Source of the DNA: Centroscyllium fabricii
Taxonomy: Eukaryota
Assembly: GCA_051313645.2 (NCBI GenBank)
Contig: JBNRSN020000024.1
Coordinates: 66,154,001-66,218,000 of the forward strand
Direction of reading: 5' to 3'
DNA length: 64,000 nt
Numbering within the stretch: the first letter of the stretch is position 1; every line of letters begins with the position of its first letter. The notes under the pieces were generated by a model that saw only the letters and a program-made list of their open reading frames with translations, ran no database searches and was not told where the DNA came from. A program made the position numbers and the translations under genes. Shown here one piece after another: positions 14,500 through 62,037 of this stretch.

Positions 14500-15219
14500 C
14501 AGGTTGTGCACCGTTAATCCGTTACCCGATAAGCCGGCAGCTTCAGTCTTCCGGAACAAATTGCCCCGACTGTCTTGCGCGTGTGCAAAATGGTCGGTGA
14601 TCGATGCTTTGGCGAATGATCTGCGCATGCGCCGCCGAACGGCGAGCACATGCGCAGATCATTCAAAATGGCCGCCGGAAGAGAAATGGTGCCTGTGCTC
14701 CCAGAATGCTGCGGGTGGGCAGGTGAGGAAGATAGCGCAGAGCGGCTTCCTTGTAAAAGCTGGGCTGAAGCCGGTGGGAGAATATTGCGAGTGTGAAATG
14801 TTTCCCGCGCCGACATTGTGGATGAAAAGGCCTGCTCCCTCTATGTGCGCGAGGAGTGAGAAGCTCCGCGGCTGCAGCTATCACATCCATAAAAATTCCC
14901 CCACAAGCTTTAAAATCTATCTCCCCTCCCGGCTTCTCTAGTTTTGAAAAAAGGTCATCGACCCGAAACGTCAACACTGCTCCTCTCCCCACCGATGCTG
15001 CCTGGCCTGCTGAGTTTCTCCAGCGTTTTTCTATTGTTATTTAACATTTCTTTAGGACTCTTCAAAACTTCGCGGTGGCCATTTCCAATGTTATGCGCAT
15101 GCGCGCTACCATTTTGAATGGTGCGCGCATGCGCACTGGCTGGCTTCATTCTCCCGTTTTCTTCGGTATACCGGCACAGGCCTAGTCCCGCCCGTGCCGA
15201 ATTAATGGTGCACAACCTG
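14500..15219. mobile_element. Tigger/pogo-type MITE containing a PLE family-2 terminal fragment (~14899-15043)
   Basis: TIR CAGGTTGTGCACC.TTAAT; TA TSD; internal piece matches 54000-54138. Confidence 0.88.
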
Positions 15220-24080: not shown

Positions 24081-25515
24081 CAGGTACACAATCGTTTATC
24101 CGAACACCTCGGGACCAGGCGGTCTTCGGATAATTTCGGTTTTCGGGTTGGTGCCCAGTGCGCATGCGCATATTGCCATGTTGAATTACGCACTGAAACT
24201 GTTCAATGAATGGGAGATCGAGAACGTCTCAAAGACAAGGTGAGCGGTAGGGTGAAGCTTCTGGAAGCAGATTAAAGTTCAGTCAGTCAGCTGGTGGCGG
24301 GCGGGCGAGGGGAAGCGGAGCGGGCAATCGCTGGGAATGGCGGCAACTCCCCCTACCAACCGTCACCGGACCAGCTCCAGCAGCGTCCGCTCCCCTAGCA
24401 ACCGTCGGGCCAGCTCCAGTAGTGTCCGCTCCCCTAGCAACCGTCGGGCCAGCTCCAGCAGTGCCCGCTCCCCTAGCAACCGTCACCGGACTAGCTCCAG
24501 CAGCGTCCGCTCCCCTAGCAACCGTCGGGCCAGCTCCAGCAGTGTCCGCTCCCCTAGCAACCGTCGGGCCAGCTCCAGCAGTGTCCGCTCCCCTAGCAAC
24601 CGTCACCAGACCAGCTCCAGCAGCGTCCGCTCCCCTAGCAACCGTCGTCGGGCCAGCTCCAGCAGCGTCCACTCCCCTATCAACCGTCACCGGGCCAGCT
24701 CCAGCAGCATCCGCTCCCCTAGCAACCGTCGCCGGGCCAGCTCCAGCAGTGTCCGCTCCCCTAGCAACCGTCGCCGGGCCAGCTCCAGCAGCGTCCGCTC
24801 CCCTAGCAACCGTCACCGGGCCAGCTCCAGCAGCGTCCGCTCCCCTAGCAACCGTCACCGGGCCAGCTCCAGCAGCGTCCGCTCCCCTAGCAACCGTCAC
24901 CGGGCCAGCTCCAGCAGCGTCCGCTCCCCTAGCAACCGTCACCGGGCCAGCTCCAGCAGTGTCCGCTTCCCTAGCAACCGTCACCGGGCCAGCTCCAGCA
25001 GTGTCCACTCCCCTAGCAACCGTCACCGGACCAGTTCCAGCAGCGTCCGCTCCCCTAGCAACGGTCACCGAGCCAGCTCCAGCAGCATCCGCTCCCCTAG
25101 CAACCGTAACCGGGCCAGCTCCAGCAGTGTCCGCTCCCCTAGCAACCGTCACCGAGCCAGCTCCAGCAGCGTCCGCTCCCCTAGCAACCGTAACCGGGCC
25201 AGCACCAGCAGTCATCTTGGCGGCCAGGATGTCGATGGCCAGCAGCATCGCCGCGAAAATGAACCTCGGCTCCTTGAGGAGGAGGAAGCGGATGAAAACT
25301 TTCAGCGTTCGGATTCGAACCATCCTGGCTAGCAGGGACAGGTGACAATACCCAATTTCCAGCTACTTCAGATCCAGAAAACAGCACAATATCCACAGCT
25401 GAGAAACAAAATTAAGTTATTTTGGCGCAAATCAGGTCATGTGACGCTCTGAAAAAACTTTTGGTTTTTGGAGCTTTCCGGTTTTCGGTGTTGCGAATAA
25501 GGGATTGTGTACCTG
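24081..25515. mobile_element. Tigger/pogo-type MITE (CAGGTACACAATC) expanded by an internal minisatellite
   Basis: TIRs and TA TSD; ends match 7194-7609. Confidence 0.9.
24347..25210. repeat. 42/39-bp GC-rich minisatellite, ~21 units
   Basis: Unit TCCCCTAGCAACCGTC(ACC)GGGCCAGCTCCAGCAGCGTCCGC. Confidence 0.97.
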
Positions 25516-29947: not shown

Positions 29948-30496
29948 CTGTAAGAAATGTTTATAGTAGTTTATAAAAATTTAACAGATCTTTGAACTTA
30001 GAAAAACACATGCCCATCATTATTAAAGAGTAAATCGGACAGCAACTTCCGGCGACCGCATATCCGCAGTTAAAACATGGAAATCAGGACGTTGCTGTCC
30101 AAGTTGCCCTGCTCCTCCAGAAGCTTCGCTATACCGGTATCTCGCCCAGAGACTCGACACTGAAACACATGCAGGGCATGAAGTTGCTGTACTTACCCAC
30201 TGGATACCCACTAAACTTGCCACACTTGTCCATTGATACCCACTAAAGTTAGGACTTATCCATTTTCGTGTAAGTGGATTTTTAACAGCGTGCTAAGTCT
30301 TAATTACTGCTAAACAACCTCTCTGGGCACTGAAAATTAGCTTTTACAAGTGTGGAGTCTCACTCATTCAGATTTAAAGTATTGCTGGAGATTTTTTATT
30401 AATTAAATATTTTTTTCTTTTTTCTTTCCGTCTCTTATCTCTCTCTCTCTCTCTTATTCTCATGTTTCTTTCCATCTCTTTATTTCGCTTTCTGTA

Positions 30497-31376
30497 CAGG
30501 TTGAGCACCGTTAATCGGGCACAGGCGGGACCAGGCCCGTGCCGGGAAATGGAAAAAACCGGGAGAACGAGTTTGGACACTGCGCATGCGCGCAACTTTG
30601 ATATTGGCTGGCGCGCGCATGCGCAGATCGTCCAATATTGGCCGCCGCGAAGTTTTTTGATGGGCTCAGGCTTTTGTGGCGTTCCGTTTAGGTTTTAGGA
30701 CTGTCGGGCAGCAGTGAAAGGCCGGTCTTGCGGGGGGAGGCAGGAGGGTGGCGCGGGTCGGGGGCGGGGAAGGAGGGTGGTGCGGGTCGGGGGGGGGGGG
30801 GAAGGAGGAAGGCGCGGGTCGGGTCGGGGGGGGGGGGAAAAGGAGGGTGGCGCGGGTCAGCGGGGGGGCAATTTATCCAATCCCCTGTTTTGCTTTCAAT
30901 TGTAAGAGGTCACACGGCGCCAGGCTGTGGTCCAACGGTTTTAGTTGGGGTCACGGGCTTTCGGAGCGCCGCTTCCCCGTCAGGTGATGGGGGAGCGGCG
31001 CTCCGAAGGCCCGTGATTTCGAGTGGGACTTTTGGACTACAGCCTGGTGCTGTGTGGCTTCTTACAATTGTCCATCCCAGTCCAACACCAGCACCTCCAC
31101 ATCATGGCTTCAATTACAGTTATCGATAAAATAACCGGCGGCCGTATTGAATTATCTGCGCATGCGCTAACCTTCCGGCGACGCATGCGCAGATCATTCA
31201 AAACACCCGCAGCTGTTTTGAATGATCTGCGCATGCGCTCGGCGCATGCGCAGATCATTCGTTGAAGCCACGATGGCGGCTGCCATTTTGCGCACGCGCA
31301 GTGCAGTCGGGGCAATTTGTGCTGGCAGACTGAAGCTGCCGGCTATTCGGTTACCGGATTAACGGTGCTCAACCTG
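30497..31376. mobile_element. Tigger/pogo-type MITE carrying a G-rich repeat (30731-30870) and a nested PLE hairpin
   Basis: TIR CAGGTTGAGCACCGTTAATC; TA TSD. Confidence 0.9.
30898..31107 (+). mobile_element. Palindromic mini-PLE (family 1), A-to-G hypermutated copy
   Basis: Aligns end to end with the 41953-42173 and 54298-54625 copies; short TSD TTCAATT. Confidence 0.85.
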
Positions 31377-32099
31377 TACTTGATTTGCCATTGAATTAAA
31401 TATTCTAACTTATACTTCCTGGTTTAGCCTCTGTGCTGCTCAATATGAATTCTTCAATCTGATTGGGTAAGGAGCTGCACAGTCACTTGGCTGTTCACAA
31501 AGGTCCAGATTCCCTAAAGAGGGTGCCGCGCTGAAATGGATTTCTAATTACTGCAAGTTCCAGTGTAAAAGCTCAATAAAAGTCTGTGGTCCAGTGTAAG
31601 CATAATGAACTCGCCGCTGACTGCAAAATCCAGACCAAAGACAATGGGACATAATTTGCGCATGCGCTAAACCCCGAAACTTGCAATCTGTCAATAACCT
31701 TCTTGACAGATTGCACTCATCCCCAGAACGGCCTCTGCGGGCGGAGTGTTGCGCTATTTGCACAACTTCTGCCCAGCGAATGCCCGTGAAATTCTTACGC
31801 CTGGTAGAGTTTTGAAAAACATAAAAATAAAATGTTTTCATTTAAACATTAAAACACATGTACAATAAGGTAAGTTTATTTTTAGACCATTTAAAATATG
31901 TAAATTAATTTTTGAAAAAAATAAATGTTTTCAATTTTTAATTATTTATTGTATTTTAATAGGGATGGGCACTAAATGCAGGCCTAGCCAGCCAGCGACG
32001 CCCACGTCCCACCAATGAATAATAAATAAAAAAAAATAATGATAAATATGTAATTTTTTTGTTATGTTAATTCTATTTTTAATGTCATCCACATTCATA

Positions 32100-35997: not shown

Positions 35998-36550
35998 CAG
36001 GTTGAGCACCGTTACACCGGCACGGGCAGGACTAGGCCCACGCCGGTAGAGCGAAAAAACCAGTAGAATGAAGCCGGCCAGTGCTCATGCGCGCACCATT
36101 CAAAATGGCTGCGCGCATGCGCACAACGTTGGAAATGGCCGCTGAACGTCCTTGCTGAGTCTCAGCTGCGGTTTGTGCCTCCTGATGACGGCCTGCAGGC
36201 TGCTCCGGGGAACCGCGCGTTTCACCATGGCGGGCGCTTGGGGCCCGCACATTTAAAACGCGGCGCAAGCCGGCGCGCCCTGACGTCACGGAAGATCCGG
36301 CTTGTCCGGCGGCCGTTTTGAACGATCTGCGCAAGCGCTCGCTGTTCGGCGGCGCATGCGCAGATCATGCAAAACATCCGGCAGCCATTTTGAATGATCT
36401 GCGCATGCGCTCGCCGTTCGGCGGCGCATGCGCAGACCATTCGCCAAAGCATAGATCGCGGCTGCCATTTTGCGCATGCGCAGGGTAGCCGGGGTGATTT
36501 ATACCGGACGACTGAAGTTGCCGGCGTTTCGGGTAACGGAGCTCAACCTG
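35998..36550. mobile_element. Tigger/pogo-type MITE
   Basis: TIR CAGGTTGAGC.CCGTTAC; TA left, CA right. Confidence 0.85.
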
Positions 36551-37236: not shown

Positions 37237-37792
37237 CAGGTTGAGCACCGTTAATCCGTTACCCGAAAAACTGGCGGCTTCAGTCGTCCGGCATAGATTT
37301 TCCCGACTGCCCGGCGCATGCGCAGACCATTCAAAATGGCCACCGTCGGGGTTGCACTTCCCTTTCACCTAACAGATACGCACTGGATCCCGGCTTAGTG
37401 ACCACCCCGATGCCTATTGTGAATCCCAGGCCCAGAAGATGAGCTGTTGTGCCAACCGCCTTTCACAGGACGCGGTACAGGTAATGCTCGGGTCGGCTCT
37501 TTCATCGCTGCCGGAGGCTCCTGCCTGGCTGCGTGCTGACGTCACCGCGCTCCGAAGCTGGCGTGCGGTGGCGTCAGAATCGAGTGCGTCTTTTTCAGCG
37601 AGTTCCACCCAACCCTTGGGCCGAAACTCACCTTCCAGGTACTGGCGAGCGCATGCGCAGAGCATTCAAAATTTTGCGGCAACCATTTTGAATGCTCTGC
37701 GCATGCGCCGCCGAAGCTTTAATCATTCGGCGTTTTCAAAAATTCGGTAGGGTGCTGGTCCCGACCCTGCCGGATTAACGGTGTTCAACCTG
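37237..37792. mobile_element. Tigger/pogo-type MITE (same interior as 45684-46425)
   Basis: TIRs and TA TSD. Confidence 0.9.
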
Positions 37793-41352: not shown

Positions 41353-42037
41353 GCTTCATTTCTACTTTAGCCTTCCTCCTTTTTTTCCCAGATCTTTCAG
41401 CTCTACTGTCAATTATAAGTAGCTTTTGTGACATCACCACCTGCTACTACTTTTAACCATGAGCACTTTATGGTTCTACGTTATTTTTAAACTTCACTCT
41501 TCCACTGTGTAAAACGGCTGAAATCAAAACCACGCTGTTACTTTTACCTCGACAAAATTAAGTTTTCAAACAAATTATTTGCTTAATAAAAATGTGATCT
41601 GAAATGATATAGCGTAACACAACAGTTTAAAAAACCACATTTATACCTGAACCAATTGGACAAAGAGTACATTCAGCTTGGCTCCCTTCCTCAGTCAGCT
41701 TACTGGAGATTGTGCCAAAATCACGCCTCTGTGCACTCACTTATTAGCTACTCAACCACGTACTGGTAATTTGTTTTATCATTTTTGCCACAAGACGAGC
41801 TTCTGATTTTAGCCACAGCATCCAACGGTGGTGCTGCAGGAGTCAGATGTTGTCCCACAGGGAGGGTAGTTTTTTTTAAAAAGTCAGACATGAAGCCTAA
41901 TCAAGCCAATCCTACACAGCAAGCAGCTGTTCGATAACAATGTGAACCAAGATGTGGAGGTGCCGGTGTTGGACTGGGGTGGACAATTGTAAGAAGTCAC
42001 ACAACACCAGATTATAGTCCGACAGTTTTATTTGAAA

Positions 42038-42074
42038 TCACAAGCTTTCGGAGCGCAGCTCCTTCCTCAGGTGA
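42038..42074 (-). ncRNA. Minimal type I hammerhead ribozyme motif
   Basis: UCAC-CUGAGGA-A-GGAGC-UGC-GCUCC-GAAA-GC-UU-GUGA. Confidence 0.75.
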
Positions 42075-42085
42075 AGTGACGAGAT

Positions 42086-42123
42086 TCACCTGACGAAGGG
42101 GCAGAAGCTCCGAAAGCTTGTGA
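42086..42123 (+). ncRNA. Minimal type I hammerhead ribozyme motif
   Basis: UCAC-CUGACGA-A-GGGGC-AGAA-GCUCC-GAAA-GC-UU-GUGA. Confidence 0.75.
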
Positions 42124-42411
42124 TTTCAAATAAAACTGTTGGACTATAATCTGGTGTTGTGTGACTTCTTACAAATGTAAACCAAGACCATGGAGCAATT
42201 TGCCTACCCACTCAAGGGTGTAGTGGAGGGTGCACTTGGGTAGAGTATCTCCTCCAAATAAGAAGTGGGTAACATCCCGATTCCAAAATCACAAGACAGC
42301 AAATTACATAGGGTAAGACAATATAAGCAGCTACCTTCTGTGGAGATTATATAGTCCTGTGGAAGTAATGAAGATCTGTTTTTTGCAATGCATTATTCTA
42401 TTGTAGGTGTG

Positions 42412-42792
42412 CAAGTTGAGCACCGTTAATCCGGCACGGTCAGGACCAGGCCCATGCCAGACAAGTGAAAACTCCGAACGGTTGAAGCTTCGGCGAGCGC
42501 ATGTGCAGACCATTCAAAATGGCCACCACAAAAGGCCACCGGCCATTTTGAATGGTCTGTGCTCATCGTTCGTGGAGGCCCGGGATCGCTGGGGACCATT
42601 CAAAATGGTCACCACGAAAGGCCGGTGGCCATTTTGAACGGTCTGCACATGCGCTCATCGTTTGGGAAGGCCCGAGCATGCGCAACCAAGCGCGGCAGCC
42701 ATTTTGTGCATGCGCAGATCAGTCGGCCGGATTCGTTCCGGACGACTGAAGCTGCCGGATTAATGGTGTCCGGATTAACGGTGCTCAACCTG
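42412..42792. mobile_element. Tigger/pogo-type MITE
   Basis: TIR CA(A/G)GTTGAGCACCGTTAATCCGG; TG left, TA right. Confidence 0.85.
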
Positions 42793-45683: not shown

Positions 45684-46425
45684 CAGGTTGAGCACCACTA
45701 ATCCGTTACCCGAAAAACCGGCAGATTTCCCCAACTGTGCAGACCATTTAAAATGGCCACCGTCGGGGCTGGGCTTCCCTTTCACCTAACAGATACTCAC
45801 TAGATCCCGGCTTAGTGACCACCCCGATGCCGATGGTGAATCTCAGACCCAGAAGATGAGCTGTTGTGCCAGCCGCCTTTTGCAGGATGCGGTACAGCCA
45901 AAACTCGGTGCCCGGCTTTGCCATCGCTGCCGGAGGCTCCTGCCTGGCTGTGTGCTGACGTCACCGCGTTCCGAAGCTGGCGTGCGGTGGTGTCACGTGA
46001 GCCGGGCTTGAGCCCCACATTGGGCCTCAGGCCCGCTGGAGCCGTGCAGCCCGCTCCCTGATCTACCATGGGTAGCAGAATCGAGTGCGTCTCGAGTTCC
46101 ACCCGACCCTTGGGCCGAAAACCACCTTCCAGGTACCAGCGAGCGCATGCGCAGACCATTTTAAATTTTGCGGCGGCCATTCTGAATGATCTGCACATGC
46201 GCCGCCGAACGCATGCGCAGACCATTCACAACTTCGCGGCGGCGATTCTGAATGATCTGCGTATGCGCCGCCGAACGGCGAGCGCATGCGCAGACCATTC
46301 AAAATTTTGCGGCAGACATTTTGAATGGTCTGCGCATGCGCCGCTGAAGCTTCAATCATTCGCCGTTTTCAACAATTCGGCAGGGTGCTGGTCCCGACCC
46401 TGCCGGATTAACGGTGTTCAACCTG
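45684..46425. mobile_element. Tigger/pogo-type MITE
   Basis: TIRs and TA TSD; repeated GCGCATGCGCAGACCATT modules. Confidence 0.9.
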
Positions 46426-54138: not shown

Positions 54139-54297
54139 CACCAAAACAGATTATCTGGTAATTATCACATTGCTGTTTGTGGGAGTTTGCCGCGTTTCCT
54201 ACATTACAACAGTAACTACACTTCAAAAGTACTTAATTGGCTGTTAAGTATTACACAGAATCTGGTCATTTAGAAATTACACAAACATGGATAACAA

Positions 54298-54625
54298 TTG
54301 CAAGAAGTCACACAACACCAGATTATAGTCCAACAGTTTTATTTTAAATCACAAGCTTTCGGAGCGTTCGCACCTTCGTCAGGTGGAAAGAGAGACTGAC
54401 CTAAAGAAAACACATGTCGGAGGAAGGGAGAAATCCGATGTGGGAGAGATCGGATTTCTCCCTTCCTCCGACATGTGTTTTCTTTAGGTCAGTCTCTCTT
54501 ACCACCTGACGAAGGGGCGAACGCTCCGAAAGCTTGTGATTTAAAATAAAACTGTTGGACTATAACCTGGTGTTGTGTGACTTCTTGCAATTGTCCACCC
54601 CAGTCCAACACCGGCACCTCCACAT
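54298..54625 (+). mobile_element. Palindromic mini-PLE (family 1), 146-bp arms
   Basis: Arms 54294-54439 and 54449-54594; tail to 54625; perfect TSD CATGGATAACAA. Confidence 0.9.
54503..54537 (+). ncRNA. Minimal type I hammerhead ribozyme motif (mirror copy on - strand at 54351-54385)
   Basis: CAC-CUGACGA-A-GGGGCG-AA-CGCUCC-GAAA-GC-UU-GUG. Confidence 0.75.
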
Positions 54626-54999
54626 CATGGATAACAACGTGGGTTTTGTCTGAATATAACACTATGTAATTTAATCAAATGAAAAACAGAAATTTAAGTA
54701 TAAACTCCTGCTACACAAGATCTAAGAGTGCTTCTAACGGCATTGCAGATATTTTGTAATCTGTTATTCAGCACTAACAGCACATTCATATCCCAAAGCA
54801 ATCATTTAGGAGCACAGGAACGGGGGGCAGCCATTGGGCATTTCTTGCCTTTTCTCTATATCCCTTTCCTTTCAAACACGTTAATTAATCTCGATCTATA
54901 AACTTCTGGGGCAGTTTCACATTCTTACTACCTCTTGTATACTAAGTTTTACCTGATTTTATTTTAGTGGTTTAGCTCAAATTCTAAGTTTATGTTCTG

Positions 55000-59318: not shown

Positions 59319-59712
59319 CAGGTTGAAGTTCGTTAATCCGGCAGGGTCAGGACCAGCACTGTGCCGAATTGTTAAAAACGCCGAATGATTGAAGCTTTGG
59401 CGGCGCGTGCGCAGATCATTTAAAATGGCCAGCGAAGTTTTGAATGGTCTGCACATGTGCTCGCCATTCGGCGGCGCAGGCACAGATCATTCAAAATGGA
59501 CACCGCAAAATTTTGAATGGTCTGCGCATGCGCTCGCCGGCACATGCGCAGATCATTCGCCAAAGCATCAATCATTCGGGGAGGCCTGGGCATGCACAGC
59601 CATGCGCGGCGGCCATTTTGCACATGCGCATGCGCAGGGCAGTCGGGGAAATCGTTGCCGGACGTCTGAAGCTGCCGGTTTTTCAGGTAACGGATTAACG
59701 GTGCTCAACCTG
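59319..59712. mobile_element. Tigger/pogo-type MITE
   Basis: TA TSD inside CR1 GGAG-TA-CTGTGT. Confidence 0.9.
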
Positions 59713-60995: not shown

Positions 60996-61674
60996 CAGGT
61001 TGAACTTCGTTGAACCGGCAGGGTCGGGACCAGGCCCATGCCGGACTACTGAAAAAACCGAACGAATGAAGCTGTCCCGAGCGCATGCGCAGAACATTCT
61101 AAATGGCTGCAGCACGCGCAGACCAGTGCAGGTGGCCGCAGCGCGTGGGTGGAGGCAGAGCACAGAGCACGGTGCGATTTCCGGGCGGAGCAATACAACT
61201 CCCCGCGGCTCGCGGGTGGAACAGAGCAGAGTGGGGAGGAGGGGGGGGAGGGGGGGGAGGGGGCACTCTGCAAGATGGAGCTCTGTAGCTCGCCGGTAAA
61301 GCAGTCTGTGAGGCCTCAGCGGATTGGAGCACTCGATGGGGACACACCCCAGAAGGTCAAGCATGGTTGTGGACATGCCCCAGAAGGTCGGGTGCTGCTG
61401 AAGCCACGCCGTCGGGACCAGTGCGCATTCGGGAAAGGCCCCGGGAGGGAGCCCGGTCCAACACTTCACGGGGCCCGAGCTTCATGCCAGGTACGGGTTT
61501 TTTTTTTGTAAAGCACAGGAAGCGTCGAAGAGCGCCGCTGCACATGCGCAGGCCAGTCGGGGATTGCGGACGGTGAGGAGCACCACTGCGCATGCGCCGA
61601 CCACGCGGGGATATCTGAGCCGGACATCTGAAGCTGCCGGTTTTTCGGGTGCCGGATCAACGAAGTTCAACCTG
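60996..61674. mobile_element. Tigger/pogo-type MITE
   Basis: TIR CAGGTTGAACTTCGTTGA.CCGGCA; TA TSD. Confidence 0.9.
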
Positions 61675-61690
61675 TACTTGTCTGAATATA

Positions 61691-62037
61691 CAGGTTGAGC
61701 ACTGTTAATCCGGCACCCTCGGGAGCAGGTTGGTGCCGGACCACTGAAAATTCCAAACCACTGAAGGTTCGGGGGGAGCGCGTGCTAGAACACTCCCCGG
61801 GGCCCGGAGCGCATGGGTAGAACACTCCCCGGGAGGGAGCCTGAGGATAGAACACTTACAAAACCTAAAAAAACAGAAACCCAAACACCCGACGCCTTTG
61901 GCGCTCGCTCACCCTTAACGGGAAACGGCGGCGCCGCCGAGCGGCTGCTCTGCAAAATGAAGAGCGCCGGATTCCAATCGTGCCGAACCACTGAAGCTGC
62001 CAGACCATCGGGTGCCAGATTACCGGTGCTCAACCTG
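61691..62037. mobile_element. Tigger/pogo-type MITE (subfamily of 20917-21356)
   Basis: TIRs and TA TSD; lies 16 bp from the previous MITE. Confidence 0.9.

Follow-up and report, generated by a model that had tools for sequence, protein, structure and literature searches.

An inverted Penelope-type repeat end with apparent ADAR-type A-to-G hypermutation, carried by a Tigger-type DNA transposon in Centroscyllium fabricii

Introduction

RNA editing is normally regarded as not inherited. Deaminase footprints are known from APOBEC-edited LTR retrotransposon copies in vertebrate genomes, and A-to-G hypermutation by ADAR has reportedly been met in retroviral proviruses. ADAR also hypermutates viral RNA genomes from A to G (PMC5075021, in the part available). 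The hairpin described here resembles the viral case in that A-to-G changes cluster on one strand, are limited to what would be double-stranded RNA and are passed on by a polymerase that takes I for G; unlike it, the template is a host repeat, the record is inherited with the nuclear genome, and a DNA transposon, which has no RNA stage of its own, serves as carrier.

In Penelope-like elements, an ORF with a reverse transcriptase (RT) and a C-terminal endonuclease lies upstream of the pLTR (PMC4209133, PMC8557442); the pLTRs carry minimal hammerheads (PMC4209133) and have an inverted 5′-truncated partner and a 30–40 bp tail on either end (PMC8557442), and the available parts of both papers do not mention editing of these structures. 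The family studied here shares the minimal hammerhead, the inverted 5′-truncated partner and the 30–40 bp tail, and may share the upstream RT/endonuclease-type ORF, but the copy under study appears to be a dead ribozyme that moves as cargo. Its carrier is like the Tigger/pogo MITEs that capture and amplify inserted DNA in its TA duplication, short terminal inverted repeats (TIRs), internal deletion series and bursts, and differs in that the cargo was probably altered by an RNA-editing-type process while inside the element.

In the open-access literature, to which our search was confined with subscription journals outside its scope, no report was found of transposon copies in nuclear DNA, those of DNA transposons included, in which ADAR editing had become fixed; one review, in the part available, covers editing at the RNA level only. 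The unedited-to-edited series inside a DNA transposon appears to be new. The findings would mean that editing has left a permanent mark in the germ line at dozens of independent sites, and that in one lineage this mark sits within a DNA transposon, an element expected never to pass through RNA. Since all stages are kept in the genome, it becomes possible to test by which route RNA passed into DNA, how often this happened and in which direction the repair of G.T hairpins is biased, and the copies may preserve a record of how active and how specific ADAR was in the germ line.

The hairpin and its Penelope-like family

The hairpin lies in the window, that is, the whole stretch of 64,000 nt that was analysed, to which all plain positions refer. 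Its features and those of its two sister copies are as follows.

30898..30981, plus strand: left arm, an inverted, antisense copy of the Penelope pLTR end
30902, 30908, 30916, 30917, 30919, 30927, 30929, 30937, 30948-30950, 30955, 30956, plus strand: A-to-G changes of the left arm
30925, 30970, 30976, 30977, plus strand: T-to-C changes of the left arm
30986..31069, plus strand: right arm, the sense pLTR end
30990, 30991, 30997, 31008, 31021, 31023, 31025-31027, 31042, 31057, plus strand: A-to-G changes of the right arm
31011, 31012, 31040, 31050, plus strand: T-to-C changes of the right arm
31070..31104, plus strand: unpaired 35-nt Penelope 'tail' free of A-to-G, from the fold and comparison with the family
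30985..31016, plus strand: remnant of a minimal type I hammerhead with destroyed core, from the descriptor of PMC4209133 and folds
41953..42178, minus strand: unedited sister copy of the Penelope fold-back, with its tail on the left
54294..54630, plus strand: unedited sister copy of the Penelope fold-back, with 146-bp arms that are 98% complementary

Each arm corresponds to the 3′ end of a very abundant repeat, for which an exact pattern search of the 7.2-Gb genome gave 55,036 matches. The family majority fits the minimal hammerhead (core boxes, an extra base between 9 and 10.1, G10.1-C11.1, and a palindromic 15.2-16.2), the z of its hammerhead folds being only -1.3, and a Rfam scan of the window gave no match at gathering score. 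An inverted partner and the 35-nt tail at either end were also found in the family, and frames of 566 and 497 aa with RVT_1 end 240–360 nt upstream of the same repeat on the same strand; a VY..YIG and a Cys/His motif were recognised in them by eye only, with 0 Pfam matches to GIY-YIG. On sequence grounds, the hairpin is identified as the inverted 3′ (pLTR) end of a Penelope-like element. Pfam found no domain in a 79-aa Penelope fragment, and in 72 of the 95 long frames around family copies only domains of neighbouring LINE, LTR and DNA-transposon sequences. At L220:1239-2936 (minus strand) and L221:1307-4160 (minus strand), long RT frames of Penelope type precede the hammerhead repeat and are candidates for the autonomous parent family.

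Compared with the two sister copies, the plus strand of the hairpin carries A-to-G changes at 13 positions of the left and 11 of the right arm, with 3–5 T-to-C changes per arm. Against the majority state of 29 family copies, A-to-G changes were found at 24 positions, among which 30979 is a family polymorphism with G already present in the unedited parent, leaving 23. An A-to-G change lies opposite each of the eight T-to-C changes, the remaining arm changes are three (30944, 30974, 31031), and the unpaired tail has no A-to-G change. The initial annotation had put these figures at about 23, about 8 and about 3, with A-to-G on the plus strand of both arms and a tail free of it, and the family consensus upheld all of them.

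When the arms were compared with each other, 16 G.T and no A.C pairs were counted on the plus strand, which folds into an 84-bp stem with G.U wobbles and two 1x1 mismatches (-157.5 kcal/mol, z -18.3), while the minus strand forms a broken stem with A.C mismatches (-114.8). The hammerhead-like fold, present in both sister copies, is lost in the window copy, the core of which is changed at A9, A15.1, U16.1 and H17 on the plus strand and at A9, U16.1 and H17 on the minus strand; destruction of the core, as initially proposed, is thus borne out, and the ribozyme is predicted to be dead on both strands. The near-perfect unedited palindrome at 54294-54594, with 146-bp arms, indicates that long stems persist in this genome.

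The carrier and the copy number of the hairpin

The hairpin is enclosed in a short transposon with the following features.

30497-31376 (30495..31378 with both flanking TA duplicates): non-autonomous DNA transposon (MITE) of Tigger/pogo type, 880 bp
30497..30519, plus strand: left TIR, 23-nt inverted match to 31354-31376
31354..31376, minus strand: right TIR, which is the 5′ end in the reading direction of the transposase gene that long relatives carry
30731..30870, plus strand: G-rich internal repeat of the young MITE subfamily
30891..30902, plus strand: left copy of a target duplication, 11-12 nt, now with 2 changes
31105..31116, plus strand: right copy of the target duplication, with one T-to-C at 31108

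The 30 sister loci read have both arms and both flanks in common; at 28 of them the two TIRs are bordered by TA and by unique outer sequence, with a divergence of ~0.7% from their own majority. Longer relatives encode CENP-B_N, HTH_Tnp_Tc5 and DDE_1 (Pfam) on the strand opposite the edited one; one long member (L145), read short of the 5′ TIR, has a transposase with all three domains in three broken frames. The carrier is accordingly classed by sequence features as a pogo/Tigger-type DNA transposon, with a TIR that we take to be Tigger4-like. Given the TIRs and the TA duplication, the hairpin most probably reached the window locus by DNA transposition as MITE cargo, and the initial proposal that the inverted-repeat form itself was the mobile unit does not hold for this copy.

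A search of the genome with an edited-arm pattern gave 1,492 matches, and 96 of the first 100 listed were the right arm of the window hairpin; the dispersed copies sharing its changes number ~1,400. The window copy has no difference from their majority over 30898-31107. Contigs from one public run (X1) match 30938-31007 and 30978-31105 with 0 differences, one holder of which may be the source sample, and another public run (X20) matches over the tail only. No RNA sample was listed among the holders, a result that carries no information about expression.

A-to-G changes of ADAR type in other hairpins

Matched patterns, each needing three fixed transitions, were searched among the 55,036 family matches. 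Triple A-to-G and triple T-to-C were found 24 times each, and triple C-to-T and triple G-to-A not at all. With L065, L080, L102 and L105 left out as duplicates from the counts of edited loci, A-to-G on one strand made up 768 of the 916 changes in 66 edited arms (pattern-fixed sites included), and all of the 21 two-arm loci carried A-to-G on one strand. By comparison, 30 unedited hairpins of the same junction had a symmetric spectrum (26 A-to-G and 27 T-to-C in those counted). The footprint resembles APOBEC-edited LTR copies in being frozen in genomic copies of mobile elements, but there the changes are G-to-A made on single-stranded cDNA, whereas here they are A-to-G and tied to RNA stems.

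ADAR prefers 5′ neighbours in the order U>A>C>G. At the other loci and outside the searched motif, As were edited after A in 121/179, after T in 107/192, after C in 110/354 and after G in 40/168 cases, that is, in fractions of 0.68, 0.56, 0.31 and 0.24 (A/T vs. G, P = 2e-16), so that the depletion of 5′ G anticipated by the initial annotation was found, with A slightly above T unlike the ADAR order. Several of the window copy's own 23 sites have a 5′ G (30990, 31057, 30948). As after C were edited in 43/113 cases in arms vs. 2/117 in the tail (P = 2e-13). Dozens of other hairpins were thus, as far as their sequences can tell, independently hypermutated in a strand-coherent manner limited to the arms with the tail spared, and the spectrum, strand coherence, neighbour bias and spared tail together support the initially suggested ADAR-type origin of the A-to-G changes. 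The rate would be roughly a few hundred editing events among ~55,000 copies. Exons of A_deamin (PF02137), a domain that in this search does not distinguish ADAR from its ADAT/ADAD paralogues, occur at five places of the genome.

Some edited loci have other forms. Eight (L063, L073, L074, L081-L084 and L087, at ~1426-1605) are single arms with T-to-C in pLTR sense and an intact tail, their edited strand being antisense to the pLTR, and no edited partner arm was found within these loci. L093:1481-1879 is a three-armed edited structure of two sense arms and one inverted arm, and L097:1426-1757 an edited palindrome with the tail on both arms.

Insertion of the hairpin precedes its editing

A search with an internal transposon segment gave 977 candidates, 40 of which were scored and 30 loci read. 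These comprised 20 empty sites, four unedited hairpins, four edited and two partial ones.

L181/L222, L223, L230, L240: unedited hairpin at the same transposon site

The 11–12 nt target sequence is single in the 20 empty relatives and a perfect duplicate in the unedited and first-stage edited copies, and the duplication was in all likelihood made by insertion of the Penelope hairpin into the transposon. Since unedited copies occupy the same transposon site, editing followed insertion, contrary to the earlier view that the hairpin was already edited when it entered the site. The unedited fold-back junction gave 45 matches, and one of the 30 read (L181) was at this transposon site; five gapped loci were left out of this comparison. 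From unedited to edited, A-to-G changes arose at 18 of 47 arm As vs. 3 of 298 As in the tail and flanks, and made up 18 of the 25 arm differences. As far as the sample goes, the 18 changes seem to have been gained in one step.

The first-stage subfamily (171 matches) has an identical A-to-G pattern, no T-to-C and a perfect target duplication around the hairpin; this less-edited version was first seen in public contigs. It diverges by 1.6%, compared with 0.6% for the subfamily of the window (P = 0.002), and is accordingly dated as the older of the two. A further 162 matches were intermediates, from which L148 and L159 were left out as the same places as L046 and L129. In L129 and L158 the T-to-C changes at 30976, 30977, 31011, 31012, 31040 and 31050 are present and the last four A-to-G absent, and most other intermediates have all changes save one late one. 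As later-stage haplotypes are partly mosaic, the later stages can be ordered with less certainty than the first three. Read together, these copies show an apparent order of empty, unedited, edited, corrected and burst, with editing confined to the arms of the transposon-borne hairpin.

An empty-site pattern from the flanks of the young subfamily had 0 matches in the genome, and two unedited-hairpin patterns with exact flanks gave no unedited copy (one gave three edited copies with CpG decay, the other none), because the older flanks differ. In L223, L230 and L181 the equivalent of 30902 is an A facing C in the unedited stem, derived from the target duplication, and is G in all edited copies; an A facing C is the kind of site that ADAR prefers.

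Correction of G.T pairs in the transposon lineage

G.T mismatch repair leans towards G-C, and GC-biased gene conversion is known in palindromes. After the first edit, Ts became C at 8 of 19 positions in G.T pairs vs. 0 of 26 in A-T pairs, with no reversion, and the A:T-to-G:C share was 12/14 in the arms vs. 4/21 in alignable flanks (P = 1e-4), 17 loci without both TIRs being left out of the flank comparison. The initial idea that G.T pairs were subsequently corrected to G-C is thereby supported, as a separate later step. The four late A-to-G changes all have a 3′ G (4/11 vs. 0/15, P = 0.02). Two transversions restored pairing, at 30970 (on one path) and 31036, and point to templated DNA repair between the arms. 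In other edited hairpins correction was found at 2 of ~420 positions, and this rarity suggests that it goes with life inside the transposon. The raw count there was 18 of 438, and compensation in other palindromes was rejected as 16 of the 18 fell at two polymorphic family sites.

The reverse-transcription route

One hairpin is present in six copies within a retro-transcript that has variable, 5′-truncated 5′ ends and a fixed tandem-repeat 3′ end. The six copies have six different A-to-G patterns, all on the transcript strand, with 26 A/G columns in the arms vs. 3 of 193 upstream.

L089, L090, L096, L101/L102, L104/L105, L106, L108, L111: retro-transcript hairpin copies with a LINE/SINE-type tail, hairpin at ~1430-1605

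In these copies A-to-G changes also occur in the downstream retroposon part (6–46 G calls per copy), and the group from L089 to L111 is a natural replicate series of editing and retrotransposition. Of 37 edited loci, 12 had a retroposon 3′ tail downstream and in the same sense as the edited strand, compared with 6 of 118 locus-strands without editing (P = 5e-5), in a test that used one distance (800 bp) and a control set mixing single and paired arms and left out seven members of the shared-host family; the other 25 of the 37 edited loci had no tested retroposon tail within 800 bp. The six-copy series and this link of edited strand and retroposon tail show, as far as genomic copies can, that the RNA route works in this genome. 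The reverse transcription initially proposed is therefore supported as a route, but not as insertion of an edited hairpin RNA at the window site. For the transposon lineage we infer the same route by analogy with these loci, no founder having been found in which the edited transposon is joined to a retroposon tail. The edited hairpins of L066, L077 and L109 lie near integrase (rve) frames and may be carried along in transcripts of LTR elements; L065 and L066 belong to a 6-kb duplication.

Origin of the edited transposon and alternative explanations

The explanation that we consider probable is that the inverted pLTR end of a Penelope element was still unedited when it entered a Tigger-type transposon, was edited by ADAR, was reverse-transcribed back into the genome and spread to ~1,400 sites. 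After the insertion, a plus-strand transcript would have folded into the 84-bp stem and been hyperedited by ADAR; read-through transcription would be needed, as the transposase gene runs on the opposite strand. A reverse transcriptase would then have read I as G; its product would have been a retrocopy of the entire element, much as other hairpins here travel in transcripts with a retroposon tail at the end, or else a cDNA by which a genomic copy was converted. A retrocopy with both TIRs would be an uncommon event, since long first-stage copies exceed 2.5 kb. Partial resolution of G.T to G-C would most likely have come from repair with a GC bias, acting on the folded DNA while the element transposed or a gap was repaired, the four further A-to-G changes may be a second, milder editing round, and the edited hairpin would then have spread by DNA transposition in a young burst.

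Another explanation is that master copies were rewritten repeatedly in place, by edited transcripts or by ADAR on hybrids, on the plus strand, then on the minus strand (A.C) and then on the plus strand again; this we regard as unlikely. If it were true, RNA editing would repeatedly mutate inverted repeats in the germ line of a vertebrate, with their structure as the target. Editing in place as such, whether by ADAR acting on DNA As in RNA:DNA hybrids or by edited RNA or cDNA templating repair (e.g., of an excision gap), would need no new retro-insertion and is judged rather improbable. It would account for changes that end at the arms with intact flanks, for three successive steps from AT to GC-richer states in one DNA-transposon lineage and for the 3′ G of all four later A-to-G changes; ADARs deaminate dA-C in hybrids (PMC5389660, PMC7955049, in the parts available), and in both cases with a resolvable history the hairpin came first and editing later. 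Against it, 38% of As were changed in one step, a share typically met in RNA hyperediting, the flanks too would have been edited in an ordinary R-loop, and the retroposon-tail link and the 5′-truncated family need reverse transcription of RNA; the rarity of correction in other edited hairpins also counts against it. The T-to-C step may also have come from ADAR acting on dA.C mismatches of the minus strand, on which the transposase is encoded.

Ordinary mutation with GC-biased gene conversion, or error-prone reverse transcription, could have produced a GC-rich subfamily with no deaminase involved, and such conversion can explain the T-to-C step, but not 18 unpaired G.T wobbles on one strand. 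The symmetric spectrum of the 30 unedited same-junction hairpins, the neighbour bias and the spared tail make it highly improbable. The exact changes are indeed common to many copies, which the initial annotation had named as a mark of an ordinary GC-rich subfamily; the sharing is real, but with both flanks shared and an unedited state preceding, the copies are descendants of one edited ancestor and not such a subfamily.

In the initial model, a fold-back RNA was the mobile unit and was already edited at insertion. In its favour, 9 of 15 independent edited palindromes are bounded by target duplications of 8–14 nt (control 23/420), and 45 unedited hairpins share the exact fold-back junction. 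However, duplicated sequence at the ends of a hairpin does not tell when it was edited, and for the window copy the model is excluded by the unedited copies at the same transposon site, so that it is scarcely credible here, although insertion of edited fold-back RNA may have occurred at some other loci. As proof of edited insertion the target duplications were rejected, both resolved cases having inherited theirs from an unedited insertion.

Although the G-rich repeat at 30731-30870 adjoins the hairpin, the sequencing or assembly artefact beside its G-runs against which the initial annotation had warned can be dismissed, given identical letters in public contigs, ~1,400 identical copies and an edited subfamily without G-runs, the absence of the repeat from this older subfamily also showing that it did not cause the A-to-G changes.

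Other repeats in the window

A search of a phage collection gave no match. Putative HE1/HER1-type repeats point to a cartilaginous fish as the probable host. Older relatives of the same Tigger-type MITE family also lie in the window; short internal palindromes are abundant in them, and none has the hairpin.

14500-15219, 35998-36540, 37237-37792, 42412-42792, 45684-46425, 59399-59712, 60996-62037: older Tigger-type MITE relatives

A 42-bp tandem array of ~20 units, with cores 88–97% alike, occupies 24350-25326.
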